From the IMG/VR virus record IMGVR_UViG_3300045988_098422: 64,000 bases of DNA. One strand, given 5' to 3'. The notes under the pieces were generated by a model. That model searched no databases and had not been told where the DNA came from. It saw only the letters and a list, made by a program, of their open reading frames with translations. Positions 20,254 through 60,493 of the stretch are shown piece by piece. Position 1 is the first letter of the stretch; every line of letters begins with the position of its first letter. The position numbers were made by a program, and so were the translations under genes. The stretch comes from a virus.

Positions 20254-20641
20254 AAAGTGTGGAGAAGTTAAAGTTATTGTGAACAAAACAAAGTGTCTTT
20301 GTGATGATTGCAATTTTAAGCGTCTACACGATGGTTTAAGCCGCTTTCAGTACAAGGTATTAAACTTTAAGTTTTTACCCCGTACAGAGATAAAAAGACG
20401 GAGCATTGCAAGGAAACCACGCAAATCAACAGGCGAGAGGGAATTGTTTGCTGAAATTTGGAATGAACGACCTCATGTGTGCACACATTGCGGGGGTAAA
20501 TTACCCGAACCAATGCGTTCCTATTATTTTAGTCATATAAAATCTAAAGGGGCTTTTCCAGAGCTCCGGCTAGAAAAGAGTAATATAGAATTAACGTGTC
20601 TAAAGTGTCATCAGGAATATGAGTTCGGGAAACGTATATAA
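20228..20641 (+). CDS. HNH homing endonuclease
   Basis: CxxC zinc knuckles (CKKCG, CDDC). HNH core CTHCGG..FSHIKSKG..N..LTCLKCHQEYE. Confidence 0.7.
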   Translation: MEKPIMKCKKCGEVKVIVNKTKCLCDDCNFKRLHDGLSRFQYKVLNFKFLPRTEIKRRSIARKPRKSTGERELFAEIWNERPHVCTHCGGKLPEPMRSYYFSHIKSKGAFPELRLEKSNIELTCLKCHQEYEFGKRI

Positions 20642-21236
20642 AGGGTTTATTTACTATGTGGTTTGCTTAATAAATGGTAAGATTTATTTTGGTCAGACAA
20701 GCCGCTCCCCAGAAATTAGGTGGAAACGTCATGTTCAAAGAGCTTTTAATGAAAATGAAAGTTATCATAGTGCTCTTCACAAAGCTATTTGTAAATATGG
20801 TGCTGATAATTTTAAGGTTTATCCTTTTATAGAAATTTGCGCAGGCTCTTTAAAAGAACTGAAAGCCAAATTAAATTGGATAGAAATTTATTTAATAGCC
20901 AAATATAAAACCCAGATAACAGGGTATAATTTAGCGGCAGGAGGTGAAGGTGTTTTTGGAAATAAATGGTCTGAAAATTCCAGGATAAAACTTTCTAAAA
21001 CAATTACAGGAAGAAAACTTACTGCGGAACATAGGCGTAAGATTTCAAGGGCGAACAAAGGAAAGCCATCTTGGGTGGCTGGGAAACATTTAAGTGAAGA
21101 GCACAAACGTAAACTTTCTGAAGCTCGCAAAGGGTCTGGAAATCCAATGTTTGGACGGAAACATTCGAGCAAAAGCATAAAGAAAATGAGCGTTGCGCAC
21201 CGAAAGCAATGGGCAAAAATTAAAATTAATAAGTAA
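20619..21236 (+). CDS. GIY-YIG homing endonuclease with NUMOD3 repeats
   Basis: GFIYYVVC..GKIYFGQT (GIY-YIG), R..H, GYNLAAGGEG. Repeated (K/R)xSxxxxGK NUMOD3-type units (KLSKTITGRK, KISRANKGK, KLSEARKGS). Confidence 0.8.
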   Translation: MSSGNVYKGFIYYVVCLINGKIYFGQTSRSPEIRWKRHVQRAFNENESYHSALHKAICKYGADNFKVYPFIEICAGSLKELKAKLNWIEIYLIAKYKTQITGYNLAAGGEGVFGNKWSENSRIKLSKTITGRKLTAEHRRKISRANKGKPSWVAGKHLSEEHKRKLSEARKGSGNPMFGRKHSSKSIKKMSVAHRKQWAKIKINK

Positions 21237-22323: not shown

Positions 22324-24423
22324 ATGATACGATTTAACGAAGACAGTAAACTGACATTCAAGCAGTTGGACACAGTTTTCGCCACCGCTGTGAGTATTGT
22401 GGATAATTTGCCACCCGTGGCAATTAATCAACTTCTCACGGCTTATGGCGGGGATATGGACAATTTGTTGAATGAAATATTTACGCAGACAAATAATGTG
22501 CTTTCGTTAAATTCCACACTTGATACAGAACGGCTGAATTATGTAGACCAACTTGAGGAAAGCATGGATGAGACCTTAAAGGTTCAGTCTTATAATTACT
22601 TCAAGACGACGATGTTACCTAATTTTCGTCAGGGATGGCGAAATTTGGAGTGGGGTAACATGATACAATTATATCCAAATAGCGCATATCTTGCAGCCCG
22701 TTCTCATGGTAAATGTTTTGCAGCCGGAACACCTGTTTTAATGGCAGACTGGACGGTAAAAAATATTGAAGATATATACCCCGGAATGGAAGTGATGGGT
22801 GTGGATTTTACACCTCGTAGAGTGTTAACGAGACACATTGGCAGTTCCAAACTTTATACAGTTTTTCAAGAAAACGGCATTGATTATACCGTGAACCCCG
22901 AACACATACTTTGCTTATGGGACACCAAGCGCAAACAGTATGTGGAAATAGAAATGAAGAGGTTCATTACCTATACAAAAGCCAAGCGAGACAGATTTAG
23001 AGGGTACAGGGTTTTTTCCTACGATACCCCTGTTTATGAGAAGGGAAAAGTGTGGGTGGATGAAGCCGGAACGGGGGCATATTACGGGTTTATGTGTGAT
23101 GGTGACCACTTGTTTCAGTTGGAAGATGGAACGGTGGTTCATAACTCTTATGAGTTTTGTATGGCGTTTCCATTGTGGAGATTATATAGTTACCACCGCC
23201 CGTCTTTTATGCGTCCGGATAATCCTGATAATAAAAATCGTCAGGAAACCTGCATTATTACCAATACCGAAAAACTTGGTAAAGAACATATTGACAAGGT
23301 AGTTGAAGAAATACGTACGAATGAGGCATTGGCAGCGAAGCTGAACCCCACAGGCAAAGCGTCTTTAGCCGCCACGAGTATTGAATGCGAAAACGGTACG
23401 AAACTTCACCTCCGTGGAAAGGATGGGTTTATTCGTGGTTTGCACGTAGGTTCAGCCGTGAGCGATGACTTACCCGATGAAAGTAGTATTTACAGTTTAG
23501 AGCAACGTGAGAAGTTGCGAGACCTGTTTAAAGGAGCAATTACCCCGATTGTAGAGCCATACGGTTATAATATCGTTGACGGCACACCGTATCAGCAAGA
23601 TGACCTCTATGCAGATTTAAAACGTGACCCGAAATTCATGGTGTTTGAGTATCCCGCTATTGACCCGAATGGTAGGTTGTTAGCTCCCGACCGTTTTACC
23701 TTTGATAAGTTGATGCAGGAAAAAGCCTCTTTGGGTACTCTAGTTTTTAGCCGTGAGTATTTGGTTGTACCAATATCAGATGACAGTACGATATTTCCTT
23801 GGGAGATATTAAAGAGAAGCACCATCGGGATGGAACACGTGCGTTTAGTTCATAACATAGAAAGTTTTCCGATTAAACTCGCACGAGTGACAATTGGTTG
23901 TGACTTTGCTGTTTCCGGAAATGTGGGGGCGGACTATACTTGCTATACGGTTTGGGGAAAAGACTTGCAAGAAAATTATTATTTACTGTATATTTACAGG
24001 GAAAAGGGCTTATCACATAATGAACAGATACAAAAGATAGCTCAACTAAACATCGCATTTAAACCGAATGAAATTGTGGTGGAAAATAACGGCTTCCAAT
24101 CTATTCTGGCTGATATGTGTGTGCAAATGGGTATAAAGAATATAACACCATTTACTACCACCGCAGGGAATAAAAAGGATTTACGTACAGGTTGGGCATC
24201 GTTGTCGGCACTGTTTGAGCGTGGTGCTCTTAAATGTCCGTACCACCCAGATACTCAAGATAAAGTTGACCAAATGTTTGGGGAGTTTAATAGTGTGGCT
24301 TTCAGAAGTGATAAGGGTACATTAGAAAGTATTAGCGGGCATGATGATACAGTAAGTTCTTCCTACATGGCTATTAACAAGTTGAGGGAAGCTACGGTGC
24401 AAATAAAAGTTGACGCAGTTTAA
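22324..24423 (+). CDS. terL: terminase large subunit, interrupted by a mini-intein
   Basis: Walker A is AARSHGK|..|S once aa 131-274 are removed. The C-terminal nuclease-type region carries conserved acidic residues (IGCDFAVSG.., ..GHDDTVSS). 699 aa including the intein. Confidence 0.75.
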   Translation: MIRFNEDSKLTFKQLDTVFATAVSIVDNLPPVAINQLLTAYGGDMDNLLNEIFTQTNNVLSLNSTLDTERLNYVDQLEESMDETLKVQSYNYFKTTMLPNFRQGWRNLEWGNMIQLYPNSAYLAARSHGKCFAAGTPVLMADWTVKNIEDIYPGMEVMGVDFTPRRVLTRHIGSSKLYTVFQENGIDYTVNPEHILCLWDTKRKQYVEIEMKRFITYTKAKRDRFRGYRVFSYDTPVYEKGKVWVDEAGTGAYYGFMCDGDHLFQLEDGTVVHNSYEFCMAFPLWRLYSYHRPSFMRPDNPDNKNRQETCIITNTEKLGKEHIDKVVEEIRTNEALAAKLNPTGKASLAATSIECENGTKLHLRGKDGFIRGLHVGSAVSDDLPDESSIYSLEQREKLRDLFKGAITPIVEPYGYNIVDGTPYQQDDLYADLKRDPKFMVFEYPAIDPNGRLLAPDRFTFDKLMQEKASLGTLVFSREYLVVPISDDSTIFPWEILKRSTIGMEHVRLVHNIESFPIKLARVTIGCDFAVSGNVGADYTCYTVWGKDLQENYYLLYIYREKGLSHNEQIQKIAQLNIAFKPNEIVVENNGFQSILADMCVQMGIKNITPFTTTAGNKKDLRTGWASLSALFERGALKCPYHPDTQDKVDQMFGEFNSVAFRSDKGTLESISGHDDTVSSSYMAINKLREATVQIKVDAV
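22714..23145 (+). mobile_element. mini-intein (144 aa, Hint domain only) in the TerL P-loop
   Basis: Starts CFAAGTPVLMADW (block A, Cys1). NPEHIL is block-B-like. Ends FQLEDGTVVHN followed by Ser+1. Excision restores GKS. No endonuclease domain. Confidence 0.7.
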
Positions 24424-27105: not shown

Positions 27106-27588
27106 ATGGAACAGGCAGTTAGTAACAACGGGGTTAAGTCACAGGAGCAATTTTTGATAAATTTGCAATTGGAGTATCTAACACAGCGTTTGCGGGCTTT
27201 AATTTACCAAGACGAAACATATATAAGAGTAGCTAGTGATATAGCCGCTAAGAAGCGAATGAAGATAACCCAGCTTGGAATTAAGTTTAATCTTACGACT
27301 ATATTTAACGGTGAGGACGTTGAACAGTTTGTGGATAAATATTTTTGGAATCCTAATGGATTGCCGAATTTTCAGTATAAAGATGCGCAACAGAAGAGGG
27401 TGCAAGGAAATTATGATGCGTGGTATATGCTTTACCGAGGAACGATAGTGGTATATAAAGGAAAAGACGCAGAAGTTTTGAGTAACAACCCCGCGAAAGA
27501 GGAATTGGAGATACGTATTAATAATGACAGAAAATTAACCGTCAGATATTCTGACATAACACTTAACAAAAATTTTGTATGGATTTAA
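27106..27588 (+). CDS. hypothetical protein
   Basis: 160 aa, no motif recognised. Confidence 0.4.
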   Translation: MEQAVSNNGVKSQEQFLINLQLEYLTQRLRALIYQDETYIRVASDIAAKKRMKITQLGIKFNLTTIFNGEDVEQFVDKYFWNPNGLPNFQYKDAQQKRVQGNYDAWYMLYRGTIVVYKGKDAEVLSNNPAKEELEIRINNDRKLTVRYSDITLNKNFVWI

Positions 27589-28025
27589 AAATTGTGAATT
27601 TGAGTAACAACGAGTTGCCGGAGTACAAAACAGCAGAAGCAGCAGGGCTTGATTTGCGTGCATGGTTACCGGAAGGACCGATTGTATTGCATCCCATGGA
27701 ACGTAGAATTATCCCGACAGGTTTACACATGGAAATTCCAGTTGGGTATGAGGGTCAGGTTCGTCCTCGTAGTGGTATAGCTGTGAAAAAAGGCTTGACA
27801 GTAATTAACTCTCCAGGAACTATTGACAGCGATTATCGTGGTGATGTAGGTGTGCCATTGATTAACCTTTCGGCATCAATTCAGACCGTGGAGCCAGGAG
27901 AACGCATTGCGCAAATTGTGTTTGCTAAGCATGAAAGAGCTGAAATTACCGTGGTAGAAAAGGTGGAAGACCTTGCAGATTCAGAACGTGGTGCGGGTGG
28001 CTTCGGTCATACAGGTACGAAATAA
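27579..28025 (+). CDS. dut: dUTP diphosphatase
   Basis: Trimeric dUTPase motifs AAGLDLRA, RSG, GTIDSDYRG, and C-terminal RGAGGFGHTG. Confidence 0.85.
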   Translation: MDLKIVNLSNNELPEYKTAEAAGLDLRAWLPEGPIVLHPMERRIIPTGLHMEIPVGYEGQVRPRSGIAVKKGLTVINSPGTIDSDYRGDVGVPLINLSASIQTVEPGERIAQIVFAKHERAEITVVEKVEDLADSERGAGGFGHTGTK

Positions 28026-28050
28026 AATTATAAGAATTTCGGGGATAAGT

Positions 28051-28082
28051 CTTGGATATTCCATTTTATCCCCGTACATTTG
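28051..28082 (+). promoter_or_regulatory. Bacteroidota-type promoter (CTTG-N20-TACATTTG)
   Basis: -7 box at 28075-28082 and -33-like CTTG at 28051-28054, 46 nt upstream of the ATG at 28129. Overlaps a 9-bp inverted repeat CGGGGATAA/TTATCCCCG (28040-28074). Confidence 0.45.
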
Positions 28083-28128
28083 CAACAGATAAGTAAACCA
28101 AATTATTAATTAAAAACGAAAGACGATT

Positions 28129-28842
28129 ATGGCTAACAATGCTCTTGCACTTCGTATGAGGTACAAAAAATTATCTGCCGAAGAATTGCAGGCTATCGCT
28201 AATGATAGCAAAAGTAGTGAAACAGAAGTAAAGATTGCTAATGAATTTTTGGCAAAGATGGGTGTAACCGCTGAAGAGGGGGTTAAGAAAGTCGCAGCCA
28301 AAGCAAAAAAGGCAGTTGAAACCAAAGAGGCTGAAGAGGAAGCTGTTACTAAAAAGGCAACTCCGAAAAAGGCTGCAAAGAAAGCTGATGCAGAAACACA
28401 GGAAGAAAGCGTGGAAAAGGCTGCAAAGAGCCAAGTAGTAGAATACGAAAGTGACGAACAGCTTACTCCGGAAGAAAAAGCACGTTTGGCAAAAGCCGAA
28501 AAGGAATTTGACGAACGCCAGAAAAGCCGCAAAACTCCTTCCAAGTCCGACAAAGCAATGAAACCCGCTACTAAAGAAAAGAAAGAAAAGGGTGCTCCTC
28601 GCGAAACCAAACGCCAAAATTTGGACGAAAGTAAGGAAGTTCCGGGATTGAAAATTGGTAGCAAAGTAACTTTGCAAGACGGTGGTGAAGTTGGTGAAAT
28701 TACCCGTGTATATGTTTCCGGAGACGGAAAAGAAAAGTGCATGGTAAAATTCGGGGACAACAAACCAATTAAGAAGCGTGTAACGGCTGTTACATTGGCT
28801 GATGAAGCACCTAAGAAAGCCCCTGCAAAGAAAAATAAATAA
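28129..28842 (+). CDS. Lys/Glu/Ala-rich protein with small C-terminal beta-rich (KOW/SH3-like) domain
   Basis: Low-complexity AKKA/KEKK tracts over aa 55-160, then GSKVTLQDGGEVGEITRVYVSGDGKEKCMVKF. Both antisense ORFs here are low-complexity shadows. Confidence 0.5.
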   Translation: MANNALALRMRYKKLSAEELQAIANDSKSSETEVKIANEFLAKMGVTAEEGVKKVAAKAKKAVETKEAEEEAVTKKATPKKAAKKADAETQEESVEKAAKSQVVEYESDEQLTPEEKARLAKAEKEFDERQKSRKTPSKSDKAMKPATKEKKEKGAPRETKRQNLDESKEVPGLKIGSKVTLQDGGEVGEITRVYVSGDGKEKCMVKFGDNKPIKKRVTAVTLADEAPKKAPAKKNK

Positions 28843-29591
28843 TGGTATCCGATAGCGGTACATTAATTTTAGTGAAAGGTATTTCAGGAAGTGGCAAATC
28901 TACACGGGTTTACTTATTCCTGGAATACCTTGAACATATAGGGGTGTCTTTTGAACCGTTTAAGTTTGTAAATATTGAGGGCAAAGAACGGGAAATTGGC
29001 GTGTATGCTAAAGACCTAGATATGGTATTTGTCGGCAAGTTTTACGAAAACGGTGGAATAAGACGTTGGCAGGGCTACGACAGTGTTACGGGAAGATTAC
29101 ATAAGGCTGAGGGGCTGAGCTACTTCCTAACCGAAATGTCCAATGCTGGACATACCGTTGTGATAGACGGTGCGGGTACGACGGCTTCGTGGCGTTTGCG
29201 ACCTTTGGAGTTGGGTGCAACCAACGGAATATTGAACATTCTCCATATCCGGTACGATTATACTGACGAACAATGGGATGAATATTGTAAAAGGATTGTG
29301 TACCGTTCCGGTAAAGAGCCGAAAGGGGATGCAATGTGGCGCAAGCATGGTACTTTTGAGAGTGATTATAAAAAAGCCGTAGAGGAAGCCAAAGAGGTGA
29401 ATGACCTCGGAGCTTGTGTTGAGGTATATAATCGTCCGTATAATACTCCAGTGTATGATTTGGGGGCGAGCATATTAAAGTTCATCGGTTTGCCTGAATT
29501 GGTGGATGACTTTGTTACCTACTGTAAGAATTCAAATTATTTGCAACTTAATTCTTTTGAAACTTTTGAAAATGGCAAAGAAAACAACTGA
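28842..29591 (+). CDS. P-loop kinase, candidate 5-hydroxymethyluracil DNA kinase (5-HMUDK)
   Basis: Walker A GISGSGKST at aa 13-21, about 250 aa. The 3' end overlaps the aGPT-Pplase-like ORF by 20 nt. The specific function is inferred from context. Confidence 0.45.
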   Translation: MVSDSGTLILVKGISGSGKSTRVYLFLEYLEHIGVSFEPFKFVNIEGKEREIGVYAKDLDMVFVGKFYENGGIRRWQGYDSVTGRLHKAEGLSYFLTEMSNAGHTVVIDGAGTTASWRLRPLELGATNGILNILHIRYDYTDEQWDEYCKRIVYRSGKEPKGDAMWRKHGTFESDYKKAVEEAKEVNDLGACVEVYNRPYNTPVYDLGASILKFIGLPELVDDFVTYCKNSNYLQLNSFETFENGKENN

Positions 29592-30597
29592 ATTTAAGAC
29601 GAATGACAATTATTTCCACCACCTGTATTGGATAGTGGAACGAATGAATGTGTTTTGGCGCAAGTATAACGGGCAGGAACGCCCGTGGACTGATGACCCT
29701 ATATTGCAGAATTTTAAGTTTACCAACGTGTATAGATGTCTGGATAGAGTGAGCCAATACTTACTCCGTCGGGTAATTTATAACGGTAAACAGTATGAGC
29801 CGGAAGATATGTTTTTCCGGATATTGGTGTTTAAGCACTTCAATAAGTGCGAAACGTGGGATTTATTGGAAAAAGAGCTCGGTGACATTACTTTGGAAGT
29901 AGGGCTAGAAGAAATTGCACGGGTATTAGATGAAGCGGTGGCAAGCGGGGAAACCATTTATGGGAGTGCCTACATTGTGAACTGTTGCTTTTATCAAAAT
30001 CCCGAATACGCCCACATAAAGGGAATGTCTAAGCATCGTGCTCACTTTACTATCTTTGACGATGAAATTTTCCAAAATGGACATTTATACGACTTTTTAG
30101 AGGCACAAAGTTTTGAGGAGTTGTTTTGGCTGTTTAGGAAGATGAAGATTTACGGTGATTTTACTGCACAACAGTATTGCATTGACCTGAATTATTCCCC
30201 TCTATTTAATTTCACGGAAAATGATTTCGTTATCACGGGTCCTGGAAGTCTAAAGGGATTGAGTTGGATAATGGAAGGAGCGACTGGGAAAAAGTATGAT
30301 TATGTAGGTGCGATTAAGTGGTTACAAGAACATTTCTTGGAAAATGTTACGCAGCTATGTGATGAACTTGGAATGGAATGGAAACCGTTGCCGTGGGAAC
30401 CCGTGCCAACATTAACGAATTATCAGAATACGTTGTGTGAAACAAGTAAGTTCGCAAAGGGATTGGGACATACTTTTAAAGAGGGTAAACAGGAGCGTAT
30501 AAAACATACTTACGAACAATCACCGCAAAAGATAGATTTTGTATTTCCACCCAAATGGAATGCAAAGATGCCTGAAGTAGGTGAAATTATTGTCTAA
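29572..30597 (+). CDS. alpha-glutamyl/putrescinyl thymine pyrophosphorylase (aGPT-Pplase)-like protein
   Basis: N-terminal WRKYNGQERPWTDDPILQNFKFTNVYRCLDRVSQYL and later YGDFTAQQYCIDLNY match my recollection of conserved aGPT-Pplase family blocks. ATG at 29572 (the track start at 29506 lies inside the upstream gene). Confidence 0.55.
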   Translation: MAKKTTEFKTNDNYFHHLYWIVERMNVFWRKYNGQERPWTDDPILQNFKFTNVYRCLDRVSQYLLRRVIYNGKQYEPEDMFFRILVFKHFNKCETWDLLEKELGDITLEVGLEEIARVLDEAVASGETIYGSAYIVNCCFYQNPEYAHIKGMSKHRAHFTIFDDEIFQNGHLYDFLEAQSFEELFWLFRKMKIYGDFTAQQYCIDLNYSPLFNFTENDFVITGPGSLKGLSWIMEGATGKKYDYVGAIKWLQEHFLENVTQLCDELGMEWKPLPWEPVPTLTNYQNTLCETSKFAKGLGHTFKEGKQERIKHTYEQSPQKIDFVFPPKWNAKMPEVGEIIV

Positions 30598-30612
30598 CTT
30601 AATTGAATAATT

Positions 30613-31710
30613 ATGTATTTAGAATGTGAAAATTTAAGTGCCGCTTTGATTGCTGTTTGCCAACAGTTATTGGAGCATGGCAAACCAACTGTCCGTAGAG
30701 GATTTAACTGCACAGAATTTCCTGGAGCGGTTATGGTATGTATTACCAACCCGACAGACCGTTATGTACGTGTGCCAGAACGCAAATGGAACAAGACATT
30801 GGGGTGGATTGAGAGCCTTTGGTTGGCTCGTGGCGATAACAGTTTGGCAATGCCATCCGCATACGTTAAGAACTTGTTGAATTTTTCTGATGACGGTGAT
30901 TATATGCGTGCGGGGTATGGTCCGAGGCTGAGGCGTTATGGCGATAACGAGGCAGCGATGACGACAGGACAGGGGATGTTATTACGCCAATACCGTAACG
31001 GGGTAAAAAAGAACGGTCTAGGACAATTGAAAGCTCCTAGTAAGTACCAAAATGCGACCGACCAATTACGGTTCGTAATTGAGAAGTTTAAAGAGGACAT
31101 AGACACTCGTGAGGCAGTAATCAGCATTGCTGACCCTGTAAGTGATGACTTTAATGGTATTGCAGGCAAAGACGCTTCTCCGCTCATTAAAACCAAAGAT
31201 ACCCCCTGCACCCGTTCTATCCATTTTATGATAGTAGATGGAAAGATGAACTGTTATGTGGATATGCGGAGTAACGATGTTATTTGGGGCTTCAGTGCCG
31301 TTAACATTTTTAACTTCACGTTGATGCAGGAATATGTGGCTGCAATTGTGGGTGTTCCTGTTGGCAAGTATTACCACAAAGCTGATAACTTGCACGTGTA
31401 CGAAGACTTTTTGCCTATGGTACAGGAAATCGCTAAACATTACCAAGACTACTTTAGTAGTGGGATTGAGTACCGTTACGAGCCGACGTACCATTCTTTG
31501 GAAGAGTTTGATACGCTGATAAAGGGGCTGTCAGAATTTGAAGAAGCCGTGCGGTCTAACTTCCTGGATAAGAACAAGGCTTCACAATACATAAAGAAGC
31601 AAAAAGACCCGTTGTTCCAGGATTGGGCACGTGTTATTTATTGTTATTGGTTCAAAGAAGTGGTAGAATTTAACAACCCGTTACTGAATGAGTTGTTTAC
31701 ACACTTGTAA
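30613..31710 (+). CDS. thymidylate synthase (ThyA)-fold enzyme, candidate dUMP hydroxymethyltransferase
   Basis: PCTRSIHFMIVDGKMNCYVDMRSNDVIWGFSAVNIFNF aligns with ThyA [37 protein letters not shown]. Catalytic Cys199 is at 31207-31209 and Asn231 at 31303-31305. ADNLHVYED aligns with GDxHxY. 365 aa, about 100 aa longer than ThyA. Confidence 0.7.
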   Translation: MYLECENLSAALIAVCQQLLEHGKPTVRRGFNCTEFPGAVMVCITNPTDRYVRVPERKWNKTLGWIESLWLARGDNSLAMPSAYVKNLLNFSDDGDYMRAGYGPRLRRYGDNEAAMTTGQGMLLRQYRNGVKKNGLGQLKAPSKYQNATDQLRFVIEKFKEDIDTREAVISIADPVSDDFNGIAGKDASPLIKTKDTPCTRSIHFMIVDGKMNCYVDMRSNDVIWGFSAVNIFNFTLMQEYVAAIVGVPVGKYYHKADNLHVYEDFLPMVQEIAKHYQDYFSSGIEYRYEPTYHSLEEFDTLIKGLSEFEEAVRSNFLDKNKASQYIKKQKDPLFQDWARVIYCYWFKEVVEFNNPLLNELFTHL

Positions 31711-31737
31711 GAGAAATAAATTAAAAATAGATTTCGT

Positions 31738-32277
31738 ATGAATTTTAGAAAGATTGACATCCTGTTAGGGATGAAGGAGATACAAAGGTTGCCCAATACA
31801 CCTCATCACCGTGGCTACAATTTGCTTGAGCATGGGATGGTCGTGGGAATGTTGTTTAGGTGGTTTGCATCAGAAGAAGACGTTGCCTACGATATTAATG
31901 TTTTTGACAAAGTGTTGCTTCATGATTACGTTGAGAGTGTAACGGGCGACCTCAATAGTTGTGTGAAGAATTTCAGCCCCGCCACCAAAGCCGCATGGGA
32001 GCTCATAGAACGTGAAATTTGTAGCACCGATATAGTACTTCAGCCGTACAGTGATGATGCCTTAAAGAAGGGAATGACCGACTTACAGCACCGATTGTTT
32101 AAGATGTGTGATTATTTGGACTTATGGATATTTTGCAAAAACGAAATAGCGTTGGGAAATGCCTGTAAGAAGATAAAGATGTGCCTAAATAATTGTGAGG
32201 TTGCGTTGTGCCGTATTTCCAACGATTTTAAAGATTTTAAGAGTATAAAGAAATTCATGGAACAGTATGAGCCATAA
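31738..32277 (+). CDS. HD-domain phosphohydrolase (YfbR-like 5'-deoxynucleotidase candidate)
   Basis: H..(LLEH)..(LLHDYVE)..D pattern: HHRGYNLLEHGMVVG and VLLHDYVESVTGDL. Confidence 0.6.
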   Translation: MNFRKIDILLGMKEIQRLPNTPHHRGYNLLEHGMVVGMLFRWFASEEDVAYDINVFDKVLLHDYVESVTGDLNSCVKNFSPATKAAWELIEREICSTDIVLQPYSDDALKKGMTDLQHRLFKMCDYLDLWIFCKNEIALGNACKKIKMCLNNCEVALCRISNDFKDFKSIKKFMEQYEP

Positions 32278-32911
32278 AGGAAAGATATATGGAATAGTAG
32301 GTGTTATCGGTAGCGGTAAGACTTACAGGGCTGAACAGTTACAATATGACGCAGCAGTTGAAGAACGCCCAATGATACTTGGTGATTTTAGCGAGGGTAT
32401 CCGTCAGACGTTAATGAACATTTTCACAGGTAGAAACAGGGGTGTTCAGTTGGATAGTAGTGTCTATGCAGGTTGGAAGAATGCCCAACAGTCAATTCTA
32501 TTACCAACTTCTGGGAATGGGTTGTTACCCGATACTGTTAAAGTAACGGGTCGTGAAATGTTGCAGCGTACCGGAGAATATTTAAAAATGTTGGCGGGCG
32601 AAGATGTTTGGGCAAAATGGACGGCTCAAGATATTTTGAACCGTTGGTCAAAAATAGATATTGATAAAAGAGAACAGTGTGATATCGTGTTTGGTTCTTT
32701 GCGGTTTGATTGCGAAGCGGCACAACTGTTTAACTTGTCTAAAGCCACAGAAAAAGAAGTAGAAATTATTTTCTGCAATTTTAAAAGTGGCAAGTACGAA
32801 TTGAACGACCATGTTAGCGAAGACTTTGCAAGGTATTTCCTAGACAAAGGCTGCAAGGACGGTGAGAATATTACTGATTTGGTAAAAGAAAAATTGCATG
32901 GAAGAATTTAA
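32267..32911 (+). CDS. P-loop deoxynucleoside monophosphate kinase-like protein
   Basis: IYGIVGVIGSGKTY Walker A at the N-terminus, 214 aa. Overlaps both flanking genes. Confidence 0.5.
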   Translation: MSHKGKIYGIVGVIGSGKTYRAEQLQYDAAVEERPMILGDFSEGIRQTLMNIFTGRNRGVQLDSSVYAGWKNAQQSILLPTSGNGLLPDTVKVTGREMLQRTGEYLKMLAGEDVWAKWTAQDILNRWSKIDIDKREQCDIVFGSLRFDCEAAQLFNLSKATEKEVEIIFCNFKSGKYELNDHVSEDFARYFLDKGCKDGENITDLVKEKLHGRI

Positions 32912-35900
32912 AGCATATTTGACGAACAACCTAATGTCGTTTACGCAAGTTTCTGACTATGTTGTAGAAATTGGTGGGAAGACATTTGAGTTGTACCAGC
33001 CCGCCTACGATGGTGCATTGTTTGACGACGACTTTAATTTTGTTGGAGTACCTATGCACGAACGAGGTGAGGATATTACAACGGAGTGCGACTTTTATGC
33101 TTATAAATTTGGGGGCGTATATTATATGCTTGAAAAGGGGAAGGAAAACGCTGTTAAGTTAACCCGTCTGAAGTATGTGGGGGAAGCACAACAGGAAATT
33201 CCAACCCCTGTCTTTTTGGGCGTACATGGGCAGTATGAAATGATGAGTGGGACGGGTACATATAGTGAATGGTGCAAGAAAGCCAAATTTTTAGGCGTGC
33301 ATACATTGGGTATATGTGAACGGAACAGTTTGGCAGGTGCGTTGAAATTTCAAACAGAATGCAAGGCAAACGGCTTGAAAAGTGTTATTGGAATGGAGTG
33401 CACCGTGTATGATATTCCAAACGATTATCGTTTTACTGTTAAAGTGTATGCGATGAATGAAAATGGTTGGCGTGACTTGCTGACTATAAATAAGTTCATT
33501 AATTGCGATAACCCCAAATATATAAGTCTGGAGGACTTTAGGGCGATAACCCTGCATAATGATAACCTGATGTTGTTTATAGACCCAAAGACTTTGGACT
33601 ACGACAAACTAGCGGGATTGAAATTAGATGTTGGGGTATATCAATTAGACCCCTGTGAATATGTAGACGACAGCCGTGATGAATGGTACTTAAAGAACTT
33701 GAAAAAGTTTTTTAAAGACAGAAACTTGATGCCCGTGCCAATGGGTGACGCATGGTATTTGGATGAGGAGTATTGTTGCATTCGCCCTCGGTTACATAGT
33801 ATTGGCGGTACAACTGCTTATGAAAGCGAAAACCAATACTTTAAATCTAATGACCAACTTTTCTTGGAGTTGGCAGCTATGTTTCCAGATACTGACGAGG
33901 GGTTTGAGGACGCCTATCAGCGTTTCACAGACGCAGCTAGTTTGTTGGAAGACATTGCATTGGGAATTGATTTTACAGTTAATGTGAAACAGCGACATTT
34001 ACCACATTATAAGATGACTCCTGATGAGGCAAAAGTGTACGATACTAATGAAGACCTCTTTTGGGCTCTTATTGCCGAGGGGCTTGATAAGCATCCTGAC
34101 TTACTTGCAACATGGGGCGAAGATGTAATTATGGAACGCATAGACCGTGAAGTGGGGGTTATAAAGCTAGGCGAGGCAATTGATTACTTTTTAATTACAT
34201 GGGATATCATTAATTGGTGTCACCGTAATGGAATAATGACAGGAATAAGTCGTGGTTCAGCGGGTGGATGCTTGGTGTCGTATCTATTGGGAATTACCAA
34301 ACTTGACCCAATGCGTTATGACTTACTTTTTGAGCGTTTCTTGAACGCAGGACGTGTTAAGGTTTCACTCCCCGATATTGACTGTGACTATCCAGGAGAA
34401 GACCGACCCCGTGTAAAGAAATACATGGAAGAACGTTACGGGTGGCAACAGGTTTGTTCTGTGGGAACTTATAGTGCATTGCAACTACGGGCAGCGATTA
34501 AGGATATGGCACGAGTGTACGGGCTTGACTTTCAGGAAATGAACGACATGATGAAAGCGTTTGACGTTAAAGACCGTAAACCTGAAGACCTGTTTAAAAT
34601 TGCGTGTGCCAACAGCCGTGTCAAAGATTTCGTAAAAACGTATCCAGATTTAATTAACGAAGTAATGTTGATTATGCCTGCACCTAAGGCACAAAGTATC
34701 CATGCGTGTGCGATGATGGTTTTCCCAGATGAGCACGATATGTTCAGGTGGGTTCCTATTCGTAAACAGGGTGACGATTATGTGACAGAATGGGAAGGCG
34801 GTGAAATGGATGCAGCCGGATTTTTGAAAGAGGACGTTTTGGGGGTAGCCCAATTTGATAAATTTCAAGACATGGTACGCCTCATCAAAGAGCACGAAAA
34901 TGTGGATTTGGATATATTTAGTGTACCGCTTGATGACAAAGAGGTTTACAGGTTTTTCCAGAACGGGTGGAATGAAGATAATTTTCACTTCGGTAGCCGT
35001 GGATTAACGGGTTATTGCCGTCAGATGAAACCTGAAAATATTGAAGACCTGATTGCCGCTATTTCGTTGTATCGTCCGGGAGCAATGGAAAACAACTTCC
35101 ATAATGAGTACGTGTTGCGTAAAGAGGGCAAAAAGACGGTGGAGTATTTTACAGGCACACAAGATATTCTTAAGAACACGTATGGAGTATTTGCCTATCA
35201 GGAGCAAATTATGCAACTTTGTCGGGAGCTAGGCGGGTTGTCTTTGGTAGAAGCTGATGACGTGCGTAAAGCAATGGTAAAGAAGAAGTACGAGGCACTG
35301 CAACAGTACAAAGAACGGTTTATTCCGTATTACCGTGATACCTATCATGTAACACAGGAATACAGTGAAAATGTGTGGGATGCTATTGATAAGGCTAGTA
35401 CTTATCTTTTCAATCGTAGCCATGCCGCAGCGTATGCAATAACAGGTTATATTTCTCAATGGATTAAAGTACATTATCCAATAGAATACTGGAGTGTGGC
35501 GTTTAAATATGCACAGGACTTTGACTATTCCCGTTATATTGCGGAAATCAATAAGACTGGGATGTGTACGGTTCGGCAGGTGGACATAAACATATCCAGC
35601 ACGGATGTAGTTATCAACTTTACGGAAAAGGCTCTATATTGGGCTATAACCGGAGTTAAGCAGGTTGCCGAAAAAGCGGCTACGCAAATATTAAAAGAGC
35701 GTGACGAAAATGGACAGTACTTTTCACTAAGCGATTTTATTAGTCGCCATAAATGGAAAGGCTCGGCAGTAAATAGCCGTGTAATTAGAAACCTTATATT
35801 GGCAGGTGCATTTGACAAACTTGAAGGAGTTACCAAAGCTAAGGACAGAATTGACCTGTTAGTGGAATATTTGGGCAAAGCGAGTGTAGCCGTACGGGAA

Positions 35901-36365
35901 GATGATATTGTATTAACAGGGGCTGACCGCCATGCGAATGATGAATGGTGGTGGGCGTTATTACAAAAGAAAGTATCGGGTTTTGCGTTCTTTAATTACG
36001 AGAGCATTTATAAACGGTTTGTCGGTGAGTTCCCAGAGGAATATGAATACGCAACGTTTGAGGAGTGTTTAGACACGGAACATCTTGCTCACAATGGTTA
36101 TGTCGTGGTAGCGGGTTATATTGCTGAAATGGAGATTAAAAAGACCAAAAAAGGCGAAATGATGGCACGCTTAACACTCGAGGCTAACTACGAATTTTTG
36201 GAAGTAATGATATTCCAGCAAGAATATCAGCAGCTTTCCGACTTATTGGTGGCAGGGCGTGCTAACCTGCTATTAATTAATGGAGTTGTTTCTTATGATA
36301 AGCGCAAAGAAAGTAATATTCTACGGGCTAATTATGAAACCAACATTGTCACCTTAACGCTATGA
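32898..36365 (+). CDS. dnaE: DNA polymerase III alpha subunit (DnaE-type) with ~105-aa N-terminal extension
   Basis: 1155 aa. PHP region FLGVHGQYEMMSG..HTLGICERNSLAG. Palm/fingers blocks GISRGSAGGCLVSYLLGITKLDP, LPDIDCDY, YQEQIMQ, FNRSHAAAYA. OB-fold-like C-terminus. Confidence 0.85.
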   Translation: MEEFKAYLTNNLMSFTQVSDYVVEIGGKTFELYQPAYDGALFDDDFNFVGVPMHERGEDITTECDFYAYKFGGVYYMLEKGKENAVKLTRLKYVGEAQQEIPTPVFLGVHGQYEMMSGTGTYSEWCKKAKFLGVHTLGICERNSLAGALKFQTECKANGLKSVIGMECTVYDIPNDYRFTVKVYAMNENGWRDLLTINKFINCDNPKYISLEDFRAITLHNDNLMLFIDPKTLDYDKLAGLKLDVGVYQLDPCEYVDDSRDEWYLKNLKKFFKDRNLMPVPMGDAWYLDEEYCCIRPRLHSIGGTTAYESENQYFKSNDQLFLELAAMFPDTDEGFEDAYQRFTDAASLLEDIALGIDFTVNVKQRHLPHYKMTPDEAKVYDTNEDLFWALIAEGLDKHPDLLATWGEDVIMERIDREVGVIKLGEAIDYFLITWDIINWCHRNGIMTGISRGSAGGCLVSYLLGITKLDPMRYDLLFERFLNAGRVKVSLPDIDCDYPGEDRPRVKKYMEERYGWQQVCSVGTYSALQLRAAIKDMARVYGLDFQEMNDMMKAFDVKDRKPEDLFKIACANSRVKDFVKTYPDLINEVMLIMPAPKAQSIHACAMMVFPDEHDMFRWVPIRKQGDDYVTEWEGGEMDAAGFLKEDVLGVAQFDKFQDMVRLIKEHENVDLDIFSVPLDDKEVYRFFQNGWNEDNFHFGSRGLTGYCRQMKPENIEDLIAAISLYRPGAMENNFHNEYVLRKEGKKTVEYFTGTQDILKNTYGVFAYQEQIMQLCRELGGLSLVEADDVRKAMVKKKYEALQQYKERFIPYYRDTYHVTQEYSENVWDAIDKASTYLFNRSHAAAYAITGYISQWIKVHYPIEYWSVAFKYAQDFDYSRYIAEINKTGMCTVRQVDINISSTDVVINFTEKALYWAITGVKQVAEKAATQILKERDENGQYFSLSDFISRHKWKGSAVNSRVIRNLILAGAFDKLEGVTKAKDRIDLLVEYLGKASVAVREDDIVLTGADRHANDEWWWALLQKKVSGFAFFNYESIYKRFVGEFPEEYEYATFEECLDTEHLAHNGYVVVAGYIAEMEIKKTKKGEMMARLTLEANYEFLEVMIFQQEYQQLSDLLVAGRANLLLINGVVSYDKRKESNILRANYETNIVTLTL

Positions 36366-37018
36366 GTACAGTTATTGGACATATTTATTGTGTTGTTTGC
36401 AATAGAAATCAAAGAATGTATTTTGGGCAAACAATGCAGCAAGTAGAAAGTCGTTTTGAGGCTCACATACGTAGGGCAAAACGTGGTTCGCTTCTTAAGT
36501 TCCACCGAGCCATACGAAAGTATGGCGAGGATAACTTTGTCATTGAGGAAGTGATGTGGGTGGAAGCTCCTACGAAGAAGGAGCTGAAAGCCAAACTTGA
36601 TTTCCTTGAACGGCATTTCATCCAGCGTTACGACACCCGAAAGAATGGCTACAACATGACAGACGGTGGCGATAGTTGTCCAATGGTAGGTAAAAATCAT
36701 TCTGAAGAAACCAAATTAAAGATAGGAATGGCAACAAAGGGTCGCAAACATTTGAAAGCAACTAAAGATAAAATTTCAAAGGGAAACAAAGGTAAGAAAC
36801 TTTCTGAAGAAACCCGACGTAAAATTTCGGAAGCCAAGAAAGGCAAGACTTCTCCATTTAAGGGTAAACATTTATCTAAAGAAGTTAGGAAACATTTATC
36901 AGAATTGGCAATCGGTAGGCAAAGTCCATTTAAGGGACATCACCATTCTGAAGCCACTAAACGTAAAATGAGTGAAATAAAAATTATACAAAATCATGGA
37001 AATATTAGTACATTTTAG
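36362..37018 (+). CDS. GIY-YIG homing endonuclease with NUMOD3 repeats
   Basis: GHIYCVVC..RMYFGQT, R..H, GYNMTDGG. Five or more NUMOD3-like units (HSEETKLKIG, KISKGNKGK, KISEAKKGK, HLSELAIGR, HSEATKRKMS). ATGA overlap with the dnaE stop. Confidence 0.8.
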   Translation: MSTVIGHIYCVVCNRNQRMYFGQTMQQVESRFEAHIRRAKRGSLLKFHRAIRKYGEDNFVIEEVMWVEAPTKKELKAKLDFLERHFIQRYDTRKNGYNMTDGGDSCPMVGKNHSEETKLKIGMATKGRKHLKATKDKISKGNKGKKLSEETRRKISEAKKGKTSPFKGKHLSKEVRKHLSELAIGRQSPFKGHHHSEATKRKMSEIKIIQNHGNISTF

Positions 37019-44579: not shown

Positions 44580-45665
44580 ATGGAAAATTTAACAGATATC
44601 TTTTTAAAATCCAGAGGGCACAAATATTTACGCAAAGTGCCGAACGGTAAAGGCGGTTATCGTTACATATACGAAGAACCGAGCCTGAAAACTACTTCGG
44701 TAGTCACACGTGAACAAAAGTACAAACAGAACGGGTGGGATTACAATACCCCATCAACGGTTGAGTACGCAAACGACCCACAGCGTAAACGGCTGCATCG
44801 TAAAACAGTTGCCGAGTACATTAAACGTTCAAGCCGACAGGGTGAAACGCCTCGTGCGGTGTTTACATTAGGCGGTTCGGGTGCGGGTAAAAGTACCGTT
44901 CTTAGAATGTTAGGTGAGCAAGACCCGTCCTTTAACAAAATTGTTACTGTTGATAGTGACGATATTAAGACAAAAACGTTTAAGGAAGATTTTGACGCTT
45001 ACAACAAACAAAAGAAGATGAGTGCCGCAGGGCGTTTGCATGAAGAGAGTAGCGAATTGGCTGATAAAATTGTTGACGGTATATTAAGCGTAAATAATGA
45101 CTACTTAAAGGATGGTACGATGAAAACGTATGCTTCTGCCGCAGCGGAAATTGAAAAAGCTAAGAAGAAAGGCTACCGGACTGATGTAGTAGGTGTGACA
45201 ATTTCGGTGGAAGAAGCCATTCGTCGGGCATATTCTAGAGCAGCTAAATCTGGTCGTCACGTTGAACCTGAAGTAATTGTAAAGGCTCATGTCGGTTCTA
45301 CGGAAACATTTTTGAAGTTAATTGAAACAGGTTTGGCAGATAGTTTGAAATTGTATGATAATTCGAGTAGTTCGCCAATACTAATCTATGATAGTGAGGA
45401 TGAAAATCCTATTAAGAACGTTAAGTTATTTGAGGAATTTAAAAATAAGAGGAATTACACTATGGCAAAGAAAGACAACAACATTGAAAAATCTTATGAT
45501 TTTGGTAAAAGTGAGTTTAACCGAAAAATGAAAAAGATATACCAAGAGCGAGAGGCTAAAGGTCTTCCAAATAGTGTGGATATACCAAACGACGCAGATG
45601 CGGACGACTTGGCACGCTTAAGAGCTTTTGGGGAATGGTTGAGCGATGGGCAACCCGTAGATTAA
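44580..45665 (+). CDS. zeta-toxin-like P-loop kinase
   Basis: FTLGGSGAGKSTVLRML Walker A, VDSDD, and downstream Arg-containing helices as in zeta/AAA_33 kinases. N-terminal HKYLRKVPNGKGGYRYIYEE motif. ATG at 44580. Confidence 0.5.
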   Translation: MENLTDIFLKSRGHKYLRKVPNGKGGYRYIYEEPSLKTTSVVTREQKYKQNGWDYNTPSTVEYANDPQRKRLHRKTVAEYIKRSSRQGETPRAVFTLGGSGAGKSTVLRMLGEQDPSFNKIVTVDSDDIKTKTFKEDFDAYNKQKKMSAAGRLHEESSELADKIVDGILSVNNDYLKDGTMKTYASAAAEIEKAKKKGYRTDVVGVTISVEEAIRRAYSRAAKSGRHVEPEVIVKAHVGSTETFLKLIETGLADSLKLYDNSSSSPILIYDSEDENPIKNVKLFEEFKNKRNYTMAKKDNNIEKSYDFGKSEFNRKMKKIYQEREAKGLPNSVDIPNDADADDLARLRAFGEWLSDGQPVD

Positions 45666-51994: not shown

Positions 51995-52456
51995 ATGGAA
52001 GAACAAGAAAAACAAGCGGTAAAACAAACTCCCGCTGATTTATATTTGATGGTTCCTAAAAATTCAAAGACAGGGGTGCGGATTTCATTCCTTAGTGTAA
52101 AGAAAATTAAATCCTTTTTTGGGATTGCGCCCACAAGGGAAATTCTTGAAGCTCACTTTCAGGCGGAGCATGTGCGAATGGAAATAGCCGATGCCGAAGC
52201 TAAAAAGGCGGGAAAGAATGCAAAATATTTACCTCAACCCTTGTATTTGCAAATACAAAGTAGTATATTTGCAACTATTGTTGAAGAAGCCCGTGGCAAA
52301 GACAAGGATGTGGATGGTAAAGCCTTGTGTCTAACTCTTGGTTCGCAGATACCCTGTTGTGTAATTACACCTATGCCGGAAGCACCTGTTGAGGACGAGC
52401 AACCAAAACAAGTTCGTAAAAAGAGAACCCCAAAAATTGTTATTAACAATGATTAG
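51995..52456 (+). CDS. hypothetical protein
   Basis: 153 aa. Confidence 0.4.
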   Translation: MEEQEKQAVKQTPADLYLMVPKNSKTGVRISFLSVKKIKSFFGIAPTREILEAHFQAEHVRMEIADAEAKKAGKNAKYLPQPLYLQIQSSIFATIVEEARGKDKDVDGKALCLTLGSQIPCCVITPMPEAPVEDEQPKQVRKKRTPKIVINND

Positions 52457-54828: not shown

Positions 54829-55527
54829 ATGAAAGAAAAGACTTTAGGTGAGGTTTATTTGGTTACGTGCTTAGTAACAGGTAAACAATACGTTGGAATA
54901 ACTGCAAGAGGTTATTTAAATCGCTGGAAGAAGCATGTTGCAATGTCTAAAACAAAAGCAACAGGTCTTCACGAGGATATTGCTAAGTTTGGGGAAGATA
55001 ACTTTAAAATAGAAGTTATAGAGAGCAAATTATATGCAAATCGTGATAGAATGGCTAAATGGCTATTTAAAAGAGAGCGTTATTGGATTGCTTATTACGG
55101 TACTTATGAAAATGGATATAATTTGACCGCAGGTGGTGACGGTGTGGCAGGCGCACATAAATCAAAAGTTATTAGAGAGCTTATGGCTGAAATGATGAAG
55201 GATTTGTACGAAAACCACCCAGAAGAAAAGATTAAGCGATTGGAAAAGGCTCACGCCAAATTGCGCGACCCCGAATATCGCAAAATTAATTCTGAGAGGG
55301 TAAAAGCCCGTTTTGCTAATCCAGCGGAAAGACAAAGAACTAGCCGCCTAACGAAAGAAGCGATGGATAAATTACCAAAATACAAGAAAGATAAAATTAA
55401 GGAGAAACAGTTTAAGAAGGGATTAATACCTTGGAATAAAGGAAAATCTATGTCTGAAGAACAGAAAAACAAAATTTCTGAAAGCTGCAAAGGCAGAAAG
55501 GCATGGAACAAAGGTTTGAGGAATTGA
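54829..55527 (+). CDS. GIY-YIG homing endonuclease
   Basis: GEVYLVTC..GKQYVGIT, R..KH, GYNLTAGGDG. C-terminal basic region with a NUMOD3-like unit (KISESCKGRK). Confidence 0.75.
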   Translation: MKEKTLGEVYLVTCLVTGKQYVGITARGYLNRWKKHVAMSKTKATGLHEDIAKFGEDNFKIEVIESKLYANRDRMAKWLFKRERYWIAYYGTYENGYNLTAGGDGVAGAHKSKVIRELMAEMMKDLYENHPEEKIKRLEKAHAKLRDPEYRKINSERVKARFANPAERQRTSRLTKEAMDKLPKYKKDKIKEKQFKKGLIPWNKGKSMSEEQKNKISESCKGRKAWNKGLRN

Positions 55528-60458: not shown

Positions 60459-60493
60459 AATGTACATTTTAAAAAGTTGATGTATATACGCCA

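Follow-up and report, generated by a model that had tools for sequence, protein, structure and literature searches.

What is the fate of thymine in the DNA of a phage that carries predicted genes for making and phosphorylating 5-hydroxymethyluracil (hmU)? This question is raised by a seven-gene cluster at positions 27579-32911 of a viral sequence, IMG/VR record IMGVR_UViG_3300045988_098422, which is referred to here as the window (the whole stretch of 64 kb). A first-pass annotation of the window read the cluster as a thymidine hypermodification pathway. Of that reading, hmU synthesis and an hmU DNA kinase are retained below, but no AADT transferase was found in the surveyed genome and T-containing restriction sites are purged from it. 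We consider it somewhat probable that the cluster is a two-stage thymine-replacement module that ends in thymine or a small derivative, not in a bulky base throughout the DNA. Bulk hypermodification of T is doubtful.

In the first, pre-replicative stage of the proposed pathway, dUTPase would yield dUMP, the ThyA-fold enzyme would hydroxymethylate dUMP to 5-hydroxymethyl-dUMP (5-hmdUMP), the HD nucleotidase would remove competing dTMP, and a P-loop kinase-like protein would phosphorylate 5-hmdUMP. The adjacent DnaE would then polymerize the triphosphate (5-hmdUTP), and nascent DNA would contain 5-hydroxymethyldeoxyuridine (5-hmdU) in place of T. In the second, post-replicative stage, the HMUD2 kinase would add one phosphate to the hydroxymethyl group to generate 5-phosphomethyldeoxyuridine (5-PmdU), a reaction established for homologs. 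Next, the clade-1 protein, whose translation is coupled to that of the kinase, may act on the hmU or PmdU base via Cys289/Glu290. As the end state, most positions would be back to thymine or would carry a small, context-limited, weakly protective derivative. This end state is favored by three observations taken together: neither an AADT nor a tailoring enzyme was found in the surveyed genome, T-containing sites are purged, and the known hypermodifying, kinase-encoding phages turn leftover hmU into thymine through an enzyme that was not identified (Lee 2018).

Gene organization of the cluster

The seven co-oriented genes that the first-pass annotation had placed directly upstream of dnaE are all found there on the + strand. 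Neighboring genes overlap by 1-20 nt or are separated by 15-103 nt. With the flanking genes, the order is as follows.

27106..27588, + strand: unnamed 160-aa protein (orf160), between the primase and dUTPase genes; no family match
27579..28025, + strand: trimeric dUTPase (PF00692, NCBIfam PRK00601, phrog_135)
28129..28842, + strand: Lys/Glu/Ala-rich (K/E/A-rich) 237-aa protein of the variable cassette; no family match
28842..29591, + strand: P-loop protein predicted to act as a kinase on 5-hmdU in DNA ('kinase 2' type; PF18747 HMUD2)
29572..30597, + strand: clade-1 aGPT-Pplase, or 'HMUDK_hel', protein (ORF4; PF18723)
30613..31710, + strand: ThyA-fold enzyme, predicted dUMP hydroxymethylase (PF00303; SPO1 gp29 likeness)
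31738..32277, + strand: HD phosphohydrolase, YfbR-like 5'-deoxynucleotidase (PF12917)
32267..32911, + strand: P-loop kinase-like protein, putative dNMP kinase (phrog_139 only)
32898..36365, + strand: DnaE (PHP/Pol III alpha), 1155 aa, called as an open reading frame (ORF), with its domains recognized in a homolog (locus L053)

An alternative ATG for ORF4 lies at 29506, and public gene calls give a 341-aa product (P0001, 100% identity).

Predicted synthesis of hmU-containing DNA

The cluster very probably makes 5-hmdUMP and 5-hmdUTP, from which DnaE builds hmU DNA, as judged from homology to characterized enzymes and from gene order. The gene set matches the pre-replicative pathway of dTTPase, dTMPase, hydroxymethylase (HMase), dNMP kinase and phage polymerase (Lee 2021).

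The ThyA-fold enzyme is predicted to be a dUMP hydroxymethylase that converts dUMP to 5-hmdUMP. It matches PF00303 (E=8e-17) and falls far under the equivalog cutoffs of all NCBIfam thymidylate synthase models (64 versus 174; 47 versus 427). Its best PDB match is the CMP hydroxymethylase MilA (4e-18, versus 1.4e-10 for the best thymidylate synthase), and it shares 30% identity with SPO1 gp29, a characterized dUMP hydroxymethylase (1e-26); its phage homologs also include M6- and PaMx11-like enzymes. In a sequence alignment, identity is 29-31% to SPO1 gp29 and M6 gp58 versus 23% to E. coli ThyA, a sequence that serves for numbering only. Cys199 and Asn231 are the residues that the first-pass annotation recognized as catalytic and as specifying uracil, respectively. 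Cys199, Arg219, Ser220, Asp222, His261 and Tyr263 align with C146, R166, S167, D169, H207 and Y209 of the E. coli enzyme, and Asn231 aligns with its Asn177, where MilA has Asp. Moreover, the protein extends ~95 residues past the ThyA C-terminus, as do SPO1 gp29 and M6 gp58.

The dUTPase, also part of the conserved core of the sister phages described below, is predicted to supply dUMP and to keep dUTP out of DNA, and it may have a dTTPase activity in addition. It matches both families, with PF00692 matched over the full profile (E=2e-28) and PRK00601 at 175 bits versus a cutoff of 103. The HD protein, rightly named an HD phosphohydrolase at first pass, would deplete dTMP or other dNMPs. It is YfbR-like by PF12917 (55.5 bits versus a cutoff of 25.9, E=7.5e-15) and matches YfbR (2PAQ, E=3e-4) and Lin2634 (1e-6) in the PDB, and its score below the NCBIfam equivalog cutoff (28.5 versus 122) places it at the superfamily level only. 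Its adjacency to the ThyA-like gene recurs in M6 gp58-gp59 and in all sister cassettes.

The P-loop kinase-like protein may be a dNMP kinase acting on 5-hmdUMP. The earlier description of a second P-loop, dNMP-kinase-like protein holds for its Walker A motif (GVIGSGKT) and for its single family match, PHROG 139 'dNMP kinase' (E=4e-8). Pfam and the PDB add nothing beyond a generic P-loop: the single sequence finds no PDB match, and a profile built from sister-phage homologs retrieves only generic P-loop proteins and gluconate kinase. DnaE presumably incorporates 5-hmdUTP; its gene lies directly downstream of the cluster in all surveyed loci, and the homolog in L053 contains PHP, DNA_pol3_alpha, finger and HHH_6 domains.

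Two further genes of possible relevance lie elsewhere in the genome, outside the window. They encode a 445-aa NUDIX protein (L025:10001-11338) and a PNK3P-like HAD phosphatase (L043:11362-12138), either of which could serve nucleotide-pool editing, such as dTTP removal.

The HMUD2 kinase and the clade-1 protein

What acts on hmU once it is in DNA? The first-pass annotation expected the ~250-aa P-loop protein to be a kinase that acts on 5-hmdU in DNA (5-HMUDK), and a profile search indeed assigns it to PF18747 HMUD2 (81.1 bits versus a cutoff of 25, E=1.1e-22, covering positions 4-178 of the 298 in the profile). Its Walker A motif, GISGSGKST, lies at residues 12-20, and in the PDB it shows weak similarity to thymidylate kinase. 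A tblastn search with the kinase returned 346 phage records, mostly Ackermannviridae, some of which are annotated 'P-loop nucleotide kinase 2' (ViI-like). The corresponding ViI protein, gp243, is listed as 'Kinase2' (Lee 2018) and phosphorylates 5-hmdU in DNA in vitro; SP10 gp218 is another 'Kinase2' protein. By homology to this proven enzyme, the HMUD2 kinase is likely to phosphorylate hmU in DNA, giving 5-PmdU. The ThyA-like gene lies 1 kb downstream of the kinase gene. The pyrophosphorylation of 5-hmdU that had been assumed for the kinase does not hold, given that gp243 adds one phosphate and not pyrophosphate (Lee 2021).

The gene that overlaps the kinase gene, ORF4, had been likened to aGPT-Pplase. 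This likeness stands at the level of the superfamily: ORF4 matches PF18723 HMUDK_hel, the former aGPT-Pplase clade 1, with 247.7 bits versus a cutoff of 25 (E=1.9e-73, profile positions 8-273 of 281), and the precomputed annotation of P0001 is the same family. It does not extend to clade 2, now PF18724 'ADDT', which holds the amino acid:DNA transferases (AADTs) and is the sole clade for which transfer of amino acids or amines to DNA has been demonstrated. Even at E<=0.1, ORF4 matches PF18723 only and yields no PF18724 match. BLASTP aligns it with M6 gp55 (8e-11), itself a PF18723 protein, and finds no match to M6 gp51, which belongs to PF18724 (1e-46). The proven transferases M6 gp51, ViI gp247, PhiW-14 gp109 and PaMx11 gp46 are all clade 2. 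M6 gp51 is a glycine:DNA transferase that, together with the kinase gp54, is sufficient in vitro, where the clade-1 protein gp55 is dispensable (Lee 2021). The proposed displacement of the phosphate by an amine or amino acid is thus not borne out for ORF4, and its assignment as an amine or amino-acid transferase is without experimental support.

Clade-1 proteins occur alone or fused to kinases. The ViI-like homolog (ORF45) is a standalone 406-aa PF18723 protein. Bacillus phage Goe26 encodes a PF18748-PF18723 fusion with the architecture of SP10 gp186, in which clade 1 forms the C-terminal half, and metagenomic fusions (including P0117) join a thymidylate-kinase-like domain to PF18723. The Pfam name 'HMUDK_hel' stems from the kinase fusions of the SP10 gp186 type. 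Such fusions, as in Goe26 and P0117, indicate that kinase and clade 1 work together.

The AlphaFold2 (AF2) model of ORF4 is all-helical (predicted local distance difference test, pLDDT, 93.2; predicted template-modeling score, pTM, 0.91). In Foldseek searches of BFVD, it matches SP10 gp186 (E=9e-13, TMq 0.74), PhiW-14 gp72 (E=3.5e-7, TM 0.62) and other clade-1 proteins (TM 0.62-0.74). AADT-domain models in BFVD are matched with probability 0.98-1.0 but more weakly than clade-1 models (TM 0.40-0.46), a likeness between the models that fits a distant common origin of clade 1 and AADT. Searched against the PDB with Foldseek, the ORF4 model did not retrieve the solved AADTs 8Z2M and 25QC; the best hit had E=1.9, with weak matches to helix-hairpin-helix (HhH) glycosylases. 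Searches of PDB sequences with phmmer and with the family profile gave no match.

Is the clade-1 protein an enzyme? Clade 1, with M6 gp55 and the ViI-like homolog included, keeps R55, D58, K154, D205, G223, G225, C289, E290 and K293 without exception, and Cys289-Glu290-x-x-Lys293, part of the clade-1 motif [E/Q]-N-x-[L/F]-C-E-x-x-K, is invariant in 37 diverse homologs as well as in these two proteins. The invariant Cys-Glu-x-x-Lys suggests catalysis rather than binding alone. In a solved AADT (PUGT), Glu243, Thr244 and Cys247 lie in the active site, and both M6 gp51 and ViI gp247 require the Cys and a Glu close to it. Gln285-Asn286-Thr-Leu-Cys289-Glu290 of ORF4 is spaced as Glu243-Thr244-x-x-Cys247 of PUGT in a comparison of the sequences. 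With this spacing in common, clade 1 may be a paralog that is competent for catalysis.

If so, which reaction might it catalyze? Tentatively, clade 1 may carry out the conversion of phosphorylated 5-hmdU in DNA back to thymine, for which an enzyme has long been sought. Cys289/Glu290 would form an exocyclic methylene intermediate, which would then be reduced; borohydride reduction of the AADT intermediate yields thymidine. If true, this lineage has a minimal 'kinase + clade 1' pathway, and hmU-replicated DNA is restored to thymine before packaging.

Clade-1 homologs also occur in cells (38-41% identity; bacterial contigs L038, L040 and L042). Their neighbors are HD and YgjV genes; helix-turn-helix (HTH), Peptidase_M78 and MazG/MazG_C genes; or Peptidase_M78 and radical S-adenosylmethionine (SAM) genes near an integrase. 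These contexts resemble mobile elements or defense islands and not phage DNA modification, and a machine-learning survey lists aGPT-Pplase among its predicted, unvalidated defense domains.

Search for a transferase and tailoring enzymes across the genome

Could a transferase be encoded away from the cluster? The ~108.5-kb genome was covered by walking outward from the window via near-identical IMG/VR contigs until the circle closed. Unassigned ORFs of at least ~150 aa were scanned against Pfam, and precomputed Pfam matches were used for the flanks of the window ends. Among the scanned ORFs of nearly the whole ~108-kb genome, there is no AADT (PF18724), a profile that detects the sister-phage protein L104:5621-6616 at 3e-21 as a positive control. 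The same scan found no gene for a pyridoxal phosphate (PLP) enzyme, radical SAM enzyme, flavoenzyme (FAD), Nmad5 protein, tailoring acetyltransferase or glycosyltransferase. The lack of PLP, radical SAM or other tailoring enzymes that the first-pass annotation saw in the cluster therefore extends to essentially the whole genome. Compared with the full pathway of HMase, 5-HMUDK, AADT and tailoring enzymes (Lee 2021), an HMase-like enzyme and a kinase are present, and the rest was not found.

A DUF2400/TIGR02757 protein with an 'IPLDTHV' motif (P0122; L009:17229-17975, ~17 kb past the window end; E=1e-62), also present in related phages, was considered as a hidden AADT and rejected. Its hhalign probability against clade 1 is 0.3%, and its AF2 model (pLDDT 96) matches MutY/OGG1 HhH glycosylases, not AADT structures.

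Sister phages share a fixed core with exchangeable cassettes

For comparison, 75 viral loci encoding clade-1 homologs and three metagenomic ones were annotated by iterated profile searches seeded from reference proteins; the sister phages among them come from the gut and from other environments. The conserved core runs primase, orf160, dUTPase, [cassette], clade 1, ThyA-like, HD, kinase-like, DnaE, and from dUTPase to DnaE this order recurs in about 60 loci. orf160, for which Pfam and PHROGs hold no family, is part of this syntenic core and keeps its position in 48 surveyed loci, and the kinase-like gene is kept between HD and DnaE in cassette types A and B. The cassettes are of four types.

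Type A, to which the window belongs, contains the K/E/A-rich protein and the HMUD2 kinase (41 loci, clade-1 identity 53-100%; by direct count, the kinase is present in all). The K/E/A-rich protein, rightly left without a function in the first-pass annotation, has no family in Pfam, PHROG or NCBIfam and has a small C-terminal domain. It accompanies the HMUD2 kinase in 41/41 type A loci and is absent from 11 other HMUD2 loci and from all other cassette types; it could act as a partner within the kinase-only cassette, unless its distribution simply mirrors shared ancestry. Type B combines RIO1-like and cytidylyltransferase-like proteins with a glycosyltransferase, either GT1 or TAGT. Two type B loci, L102 (6468-8981) and L111, encode an 837-aa GT1-clade-1 fusion that parallels the kinase-clade-1 fusions of the SP10 type. 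Type C (L104:4180-8005; also L055, L101, L106-L109, L112 and L120) contains HMUD2, a glutamine amidotransferase (GATase), an AADT (PF18724, 3e-21), an amidoligase and a GNAT acetyltransferase; it is a candidate for a full hypermodification cassette, and its product is probably an uncharacterized thymidine adduct. Type D, found in Brevibacterium phage LuckyBarnes among others, consists of TAGT, to which an FkbM-like methyltransferase may be added. In the glycosyltransferase-only cassettes, no P-loop kinase stands beside clade 1, only IstB/DnaC-like loaders.

Since clade 1 coexists with a true AADT in sister phages, it is not an AADT replacement. The conserved gene order identifies clade 1 as the constant partner of hmU synthesis and not as a substitute for the transferase.

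Restriction-site avoidance

If T were extensively hypermodified, would the genome need to shed its restriction sites? In M6, ViI and PhiW-14, hypermodification is directed at TG/TC, and 48-71% of Type II enzymes are blocked by it (Flodman et al. 2019). In the 64-kb window, with expected counts from a second-order Markov model, GATC occurs 0 times versus 130 expected, GGCC 0 versus 137, TCGA 7 versus 110 and CGCG 7 versus 99. AAGCTT (0/16, observed/expected), ATGCAT (0/13) and CATATG (0/9.5) are missing, GTATAC and GGTACC are also absent (expected within 9.5-16 each), and CCATGG is among the purged sites. The avoidance holds in the remaining genome (L004, L005, L009, L025 and L043), with about one GATC in ~108 kb. 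As controls, a 34-kb stretch of M6 contains 171 GATC versus 191 expected and 308 GGCC versus 339; counts in a ViI-like phage and in LuckyBarnes likewise lie close to those expected.

Because the purged sites contain TG/TC, the infecting DNA of the window phage arguably lacks broad protection at T. That T-containing sites are almost completely purged speaks against extensive protective T hypermodification.

Alternative explanations

Could the clade-1 protein itself be the transferase, as the first-pass annotation read it? A cellular amine or amino acid would then displace the phosphate, and a sizeable T fraction would be a simple, possibly new hypermodified base. Membership in the aGPT-Pplase superfamily, an invariant Cys/Glu pair like the clade-2 catalytic pair, and the overlap of the clade-1 gene with the kinase gene, to which it is fused elsewhere, are all compatible with this proposal, as is SP10, for which Table 3 of Lee 2018 lists no clade-2 protein; a tblastn search with a sister-phage AADT likewise shows no Bacillus phages among the groups listed. 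However, M6 gp55 is unnecessary for transfer in vitro, and clade 1 exists side by side with a bona fide AADT not only in sister phages but also in M6, ViI and PhiW-14. Furthermore, TG/TC sites are purged as though they were unprotected, unlike in M6 and ViI-like phages. We therefore regard a clade-1 transferase as unlikely, but as deserving of attention.

Alternatively, the kinase product could be final. The virion would keep 5-PmdU or 5-hmdU in place of many T residues, clade 1 would be a base-flipping, DNA-binding accessory protein, and the Lys-rich protein may offset the added negative charge. A substrate-presenting role shared by kinases and glycosyltransferases would fit the fusions of clade 1 to kinases or GT1 and the Pfam term 'kinase helical domain', although the SP10 gp186 kinase domain is active without its helical domain (Lee 2021) and the invariant Cys-Glu-x-x-Lys points to catalysis over mere binding. 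The type A cassette indeed consists of the kinase and the K/E/A-rich protein only. As for the virion DNA, hmU alone protects poorly, which is compatible with site avoidance, but 5-PmdU blocked NcoI in vitro (Lee 2021), yet its site CCATGG is purged, and virions of all studied kinase-encoding phages are without hmU. Taken together, a final kinase product is improbable.

Finally, ordinary nucleotide metabolism with a plain thymidylate synthase, dNMP kinases as the P-loop proteins and canonical DNA would explain why all families lie within nucleotide metabolism, why the Pfam thymidylate synthase model is matched and why sites are avoided as is typical of unmodified phages, but it is very improbable because the ThyA-fold protein scores far below the equivalog cutoffs and is nearest to hydroxymethylases, with their C-terminal extension, the kinase matches the DNA-kinase family PF18747 and not dNMP kinases, clade 1 occurs, in the phage groups studied so far, in phages that modify hmU further and is confined to hypermodifying phages among the seven genomes compared (Lee 2018), and sister phages fill this slot with AADT or glycosyltransferase cassettes.

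Several points weigh against the two-stage module that ends in thymine or a small derivative. Palindrome avoidance is indirect evidence, and host-specific restriction-modification pressure or methylation-dependent restriction at GATC could cause it. A biochemical function has been shown for no clade-1 protein. Clade 1 occurs in glycosyltransferase cassettes without a recognizable hmU kinase (type D, LuckyBarnes), a poor fit to a strictly phosphate-dependent reaction. SP10 has clade 1 only, yet makes alpha-glutamylthymidine (Lee 2018), and clade 1 could thus be a genuine transferase. In the first stage, no dCMP deaminase and no dedicated dTTPase were found in the genome, and the homology behind the proposed dNMP-kinase and dTMPase roles is weak or generic. 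In the search for AADT and tailoring genes, ORFs shorter than ~150 aa outside the cluster were profile-scanned in part.

Comparison with known systems

The closest parallels are M6, ViI, PhiW-14 and PaMx11 (Lee 2018 PNAS; Lee 2021 NAR). The window shares with this group a ThyA-like gene beside an HD gene (M6 gp58-gp59), a kinase of the ViI gp243 type, clade-1 paralogs (M6 gp55, ViI gp160 and PhiW-14 gp72) and a position next to the phage DNA polymerase gene. Unlike these phages, the window phage has no AADT and no PLP, radical SAM, FAD or acetyltransferase tailoring in the surveyed genome, its polymerase is DnaE and not PolA or PolB, and, in contrast to M6 and ViI-like genomes, it strongly avoids TG/TC sites.

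SP10 gp186 and Goe26 also bring kinase and clade 1 together, fused in those phages and as overlapping genes in the window. As in the window phage, no clade-2 protein was detected in SP10 (Lee 2018). The SP10 kinase domain is HMUD1 (PF18748), whereas that of the window is HMUD2 (PF18747), and SP10, which makes alpha-glutamylthymidine, encodes another kinase as well as a radical SAM enzyme; none of its tailoring genes is found in the window phage. The hmU phages SPO1, SP8 and SP5C share the dUMP hydroxymethylase, the nucleotide-pool enzymes (dUTPase, nucleotidase and dNMP kinase) and a polymerase of their own. However, they have no hmU DNA kinase or aGPT-Pplase-family protein and keep hmU in the virion, whereas the window has both genes. 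The presence of a kinase and clade 1 beyond the SPO1-type set implies post-replication processing.

One genomic slot thus accommodates interchangeable cassettes: a kinase only, a kinase with AADT and amidoligase/GATase/GNAT, or glycosyltransferases. In this series provided by nature, what stays constant (hmU synthesis and clade 1) can be told apart from the chemistry that varies. The kinase-only cassette is the cleanest setting for the function of clade 1, including the conversion of hmU to thymine, for which the enzyme is unknown (Lee 2018). The series also calls for caution, in that an 'aGPT-Pplase-like' gene alone is no proof of hypermodified DNA.

Genome context and other features

Several human gut metagenomes contain contigs, 108,472-108,537 nt long, that encode these exact proteins. 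The uncultured ~108-kb phage is abundant and recurs in such metagenomes, and the exact clade-1 protein cluster alone has hundreds of member sequences. A DNA-level search for a deposited phage relative gave short dUTPase matches only and no cultured close relative. A Bacteroidota host, as assumed in the first-pass annotation, is inferred from BACON-domain proteins and Bacteroidales-like DUF2400 homologs, and a literature search found no description of such a pathway in gut Bacteroidota phages.

Transcription of the window runs essentially in one direction, with strongly positive GC skew. Further genes encode a class II (B12-dependent-like) ribonucleotide reductase (52449-54785), a GroEL-type chaperonin (55569-57179), a ferritin-like protein (59979-60467, - strand), which is the only clear minus-strand gene in the window, and a Zeta-toxin-like P-loop kinase (44580-45665). 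The large terminase gene (22324-24423) contains an apparent intein (Hint-like 'CFAAGTPVLMADW ... VVHNS' segment). Its homolog in L053 has precomputed Hom_end_hint and Terminase_6C matches, and the DnaE of L053 also bears an intein. Scattered along the genome are three paralogs (20619-21236, 36362-37018 and 54829-55527) that resemble GIY-YIG homing endonucleases and have repeated tails of a K/S-rich, NUMOD-like kind, and another GIY-YIG/I-HmuI-like gene is located upstream of the window (L005:6744-7508).

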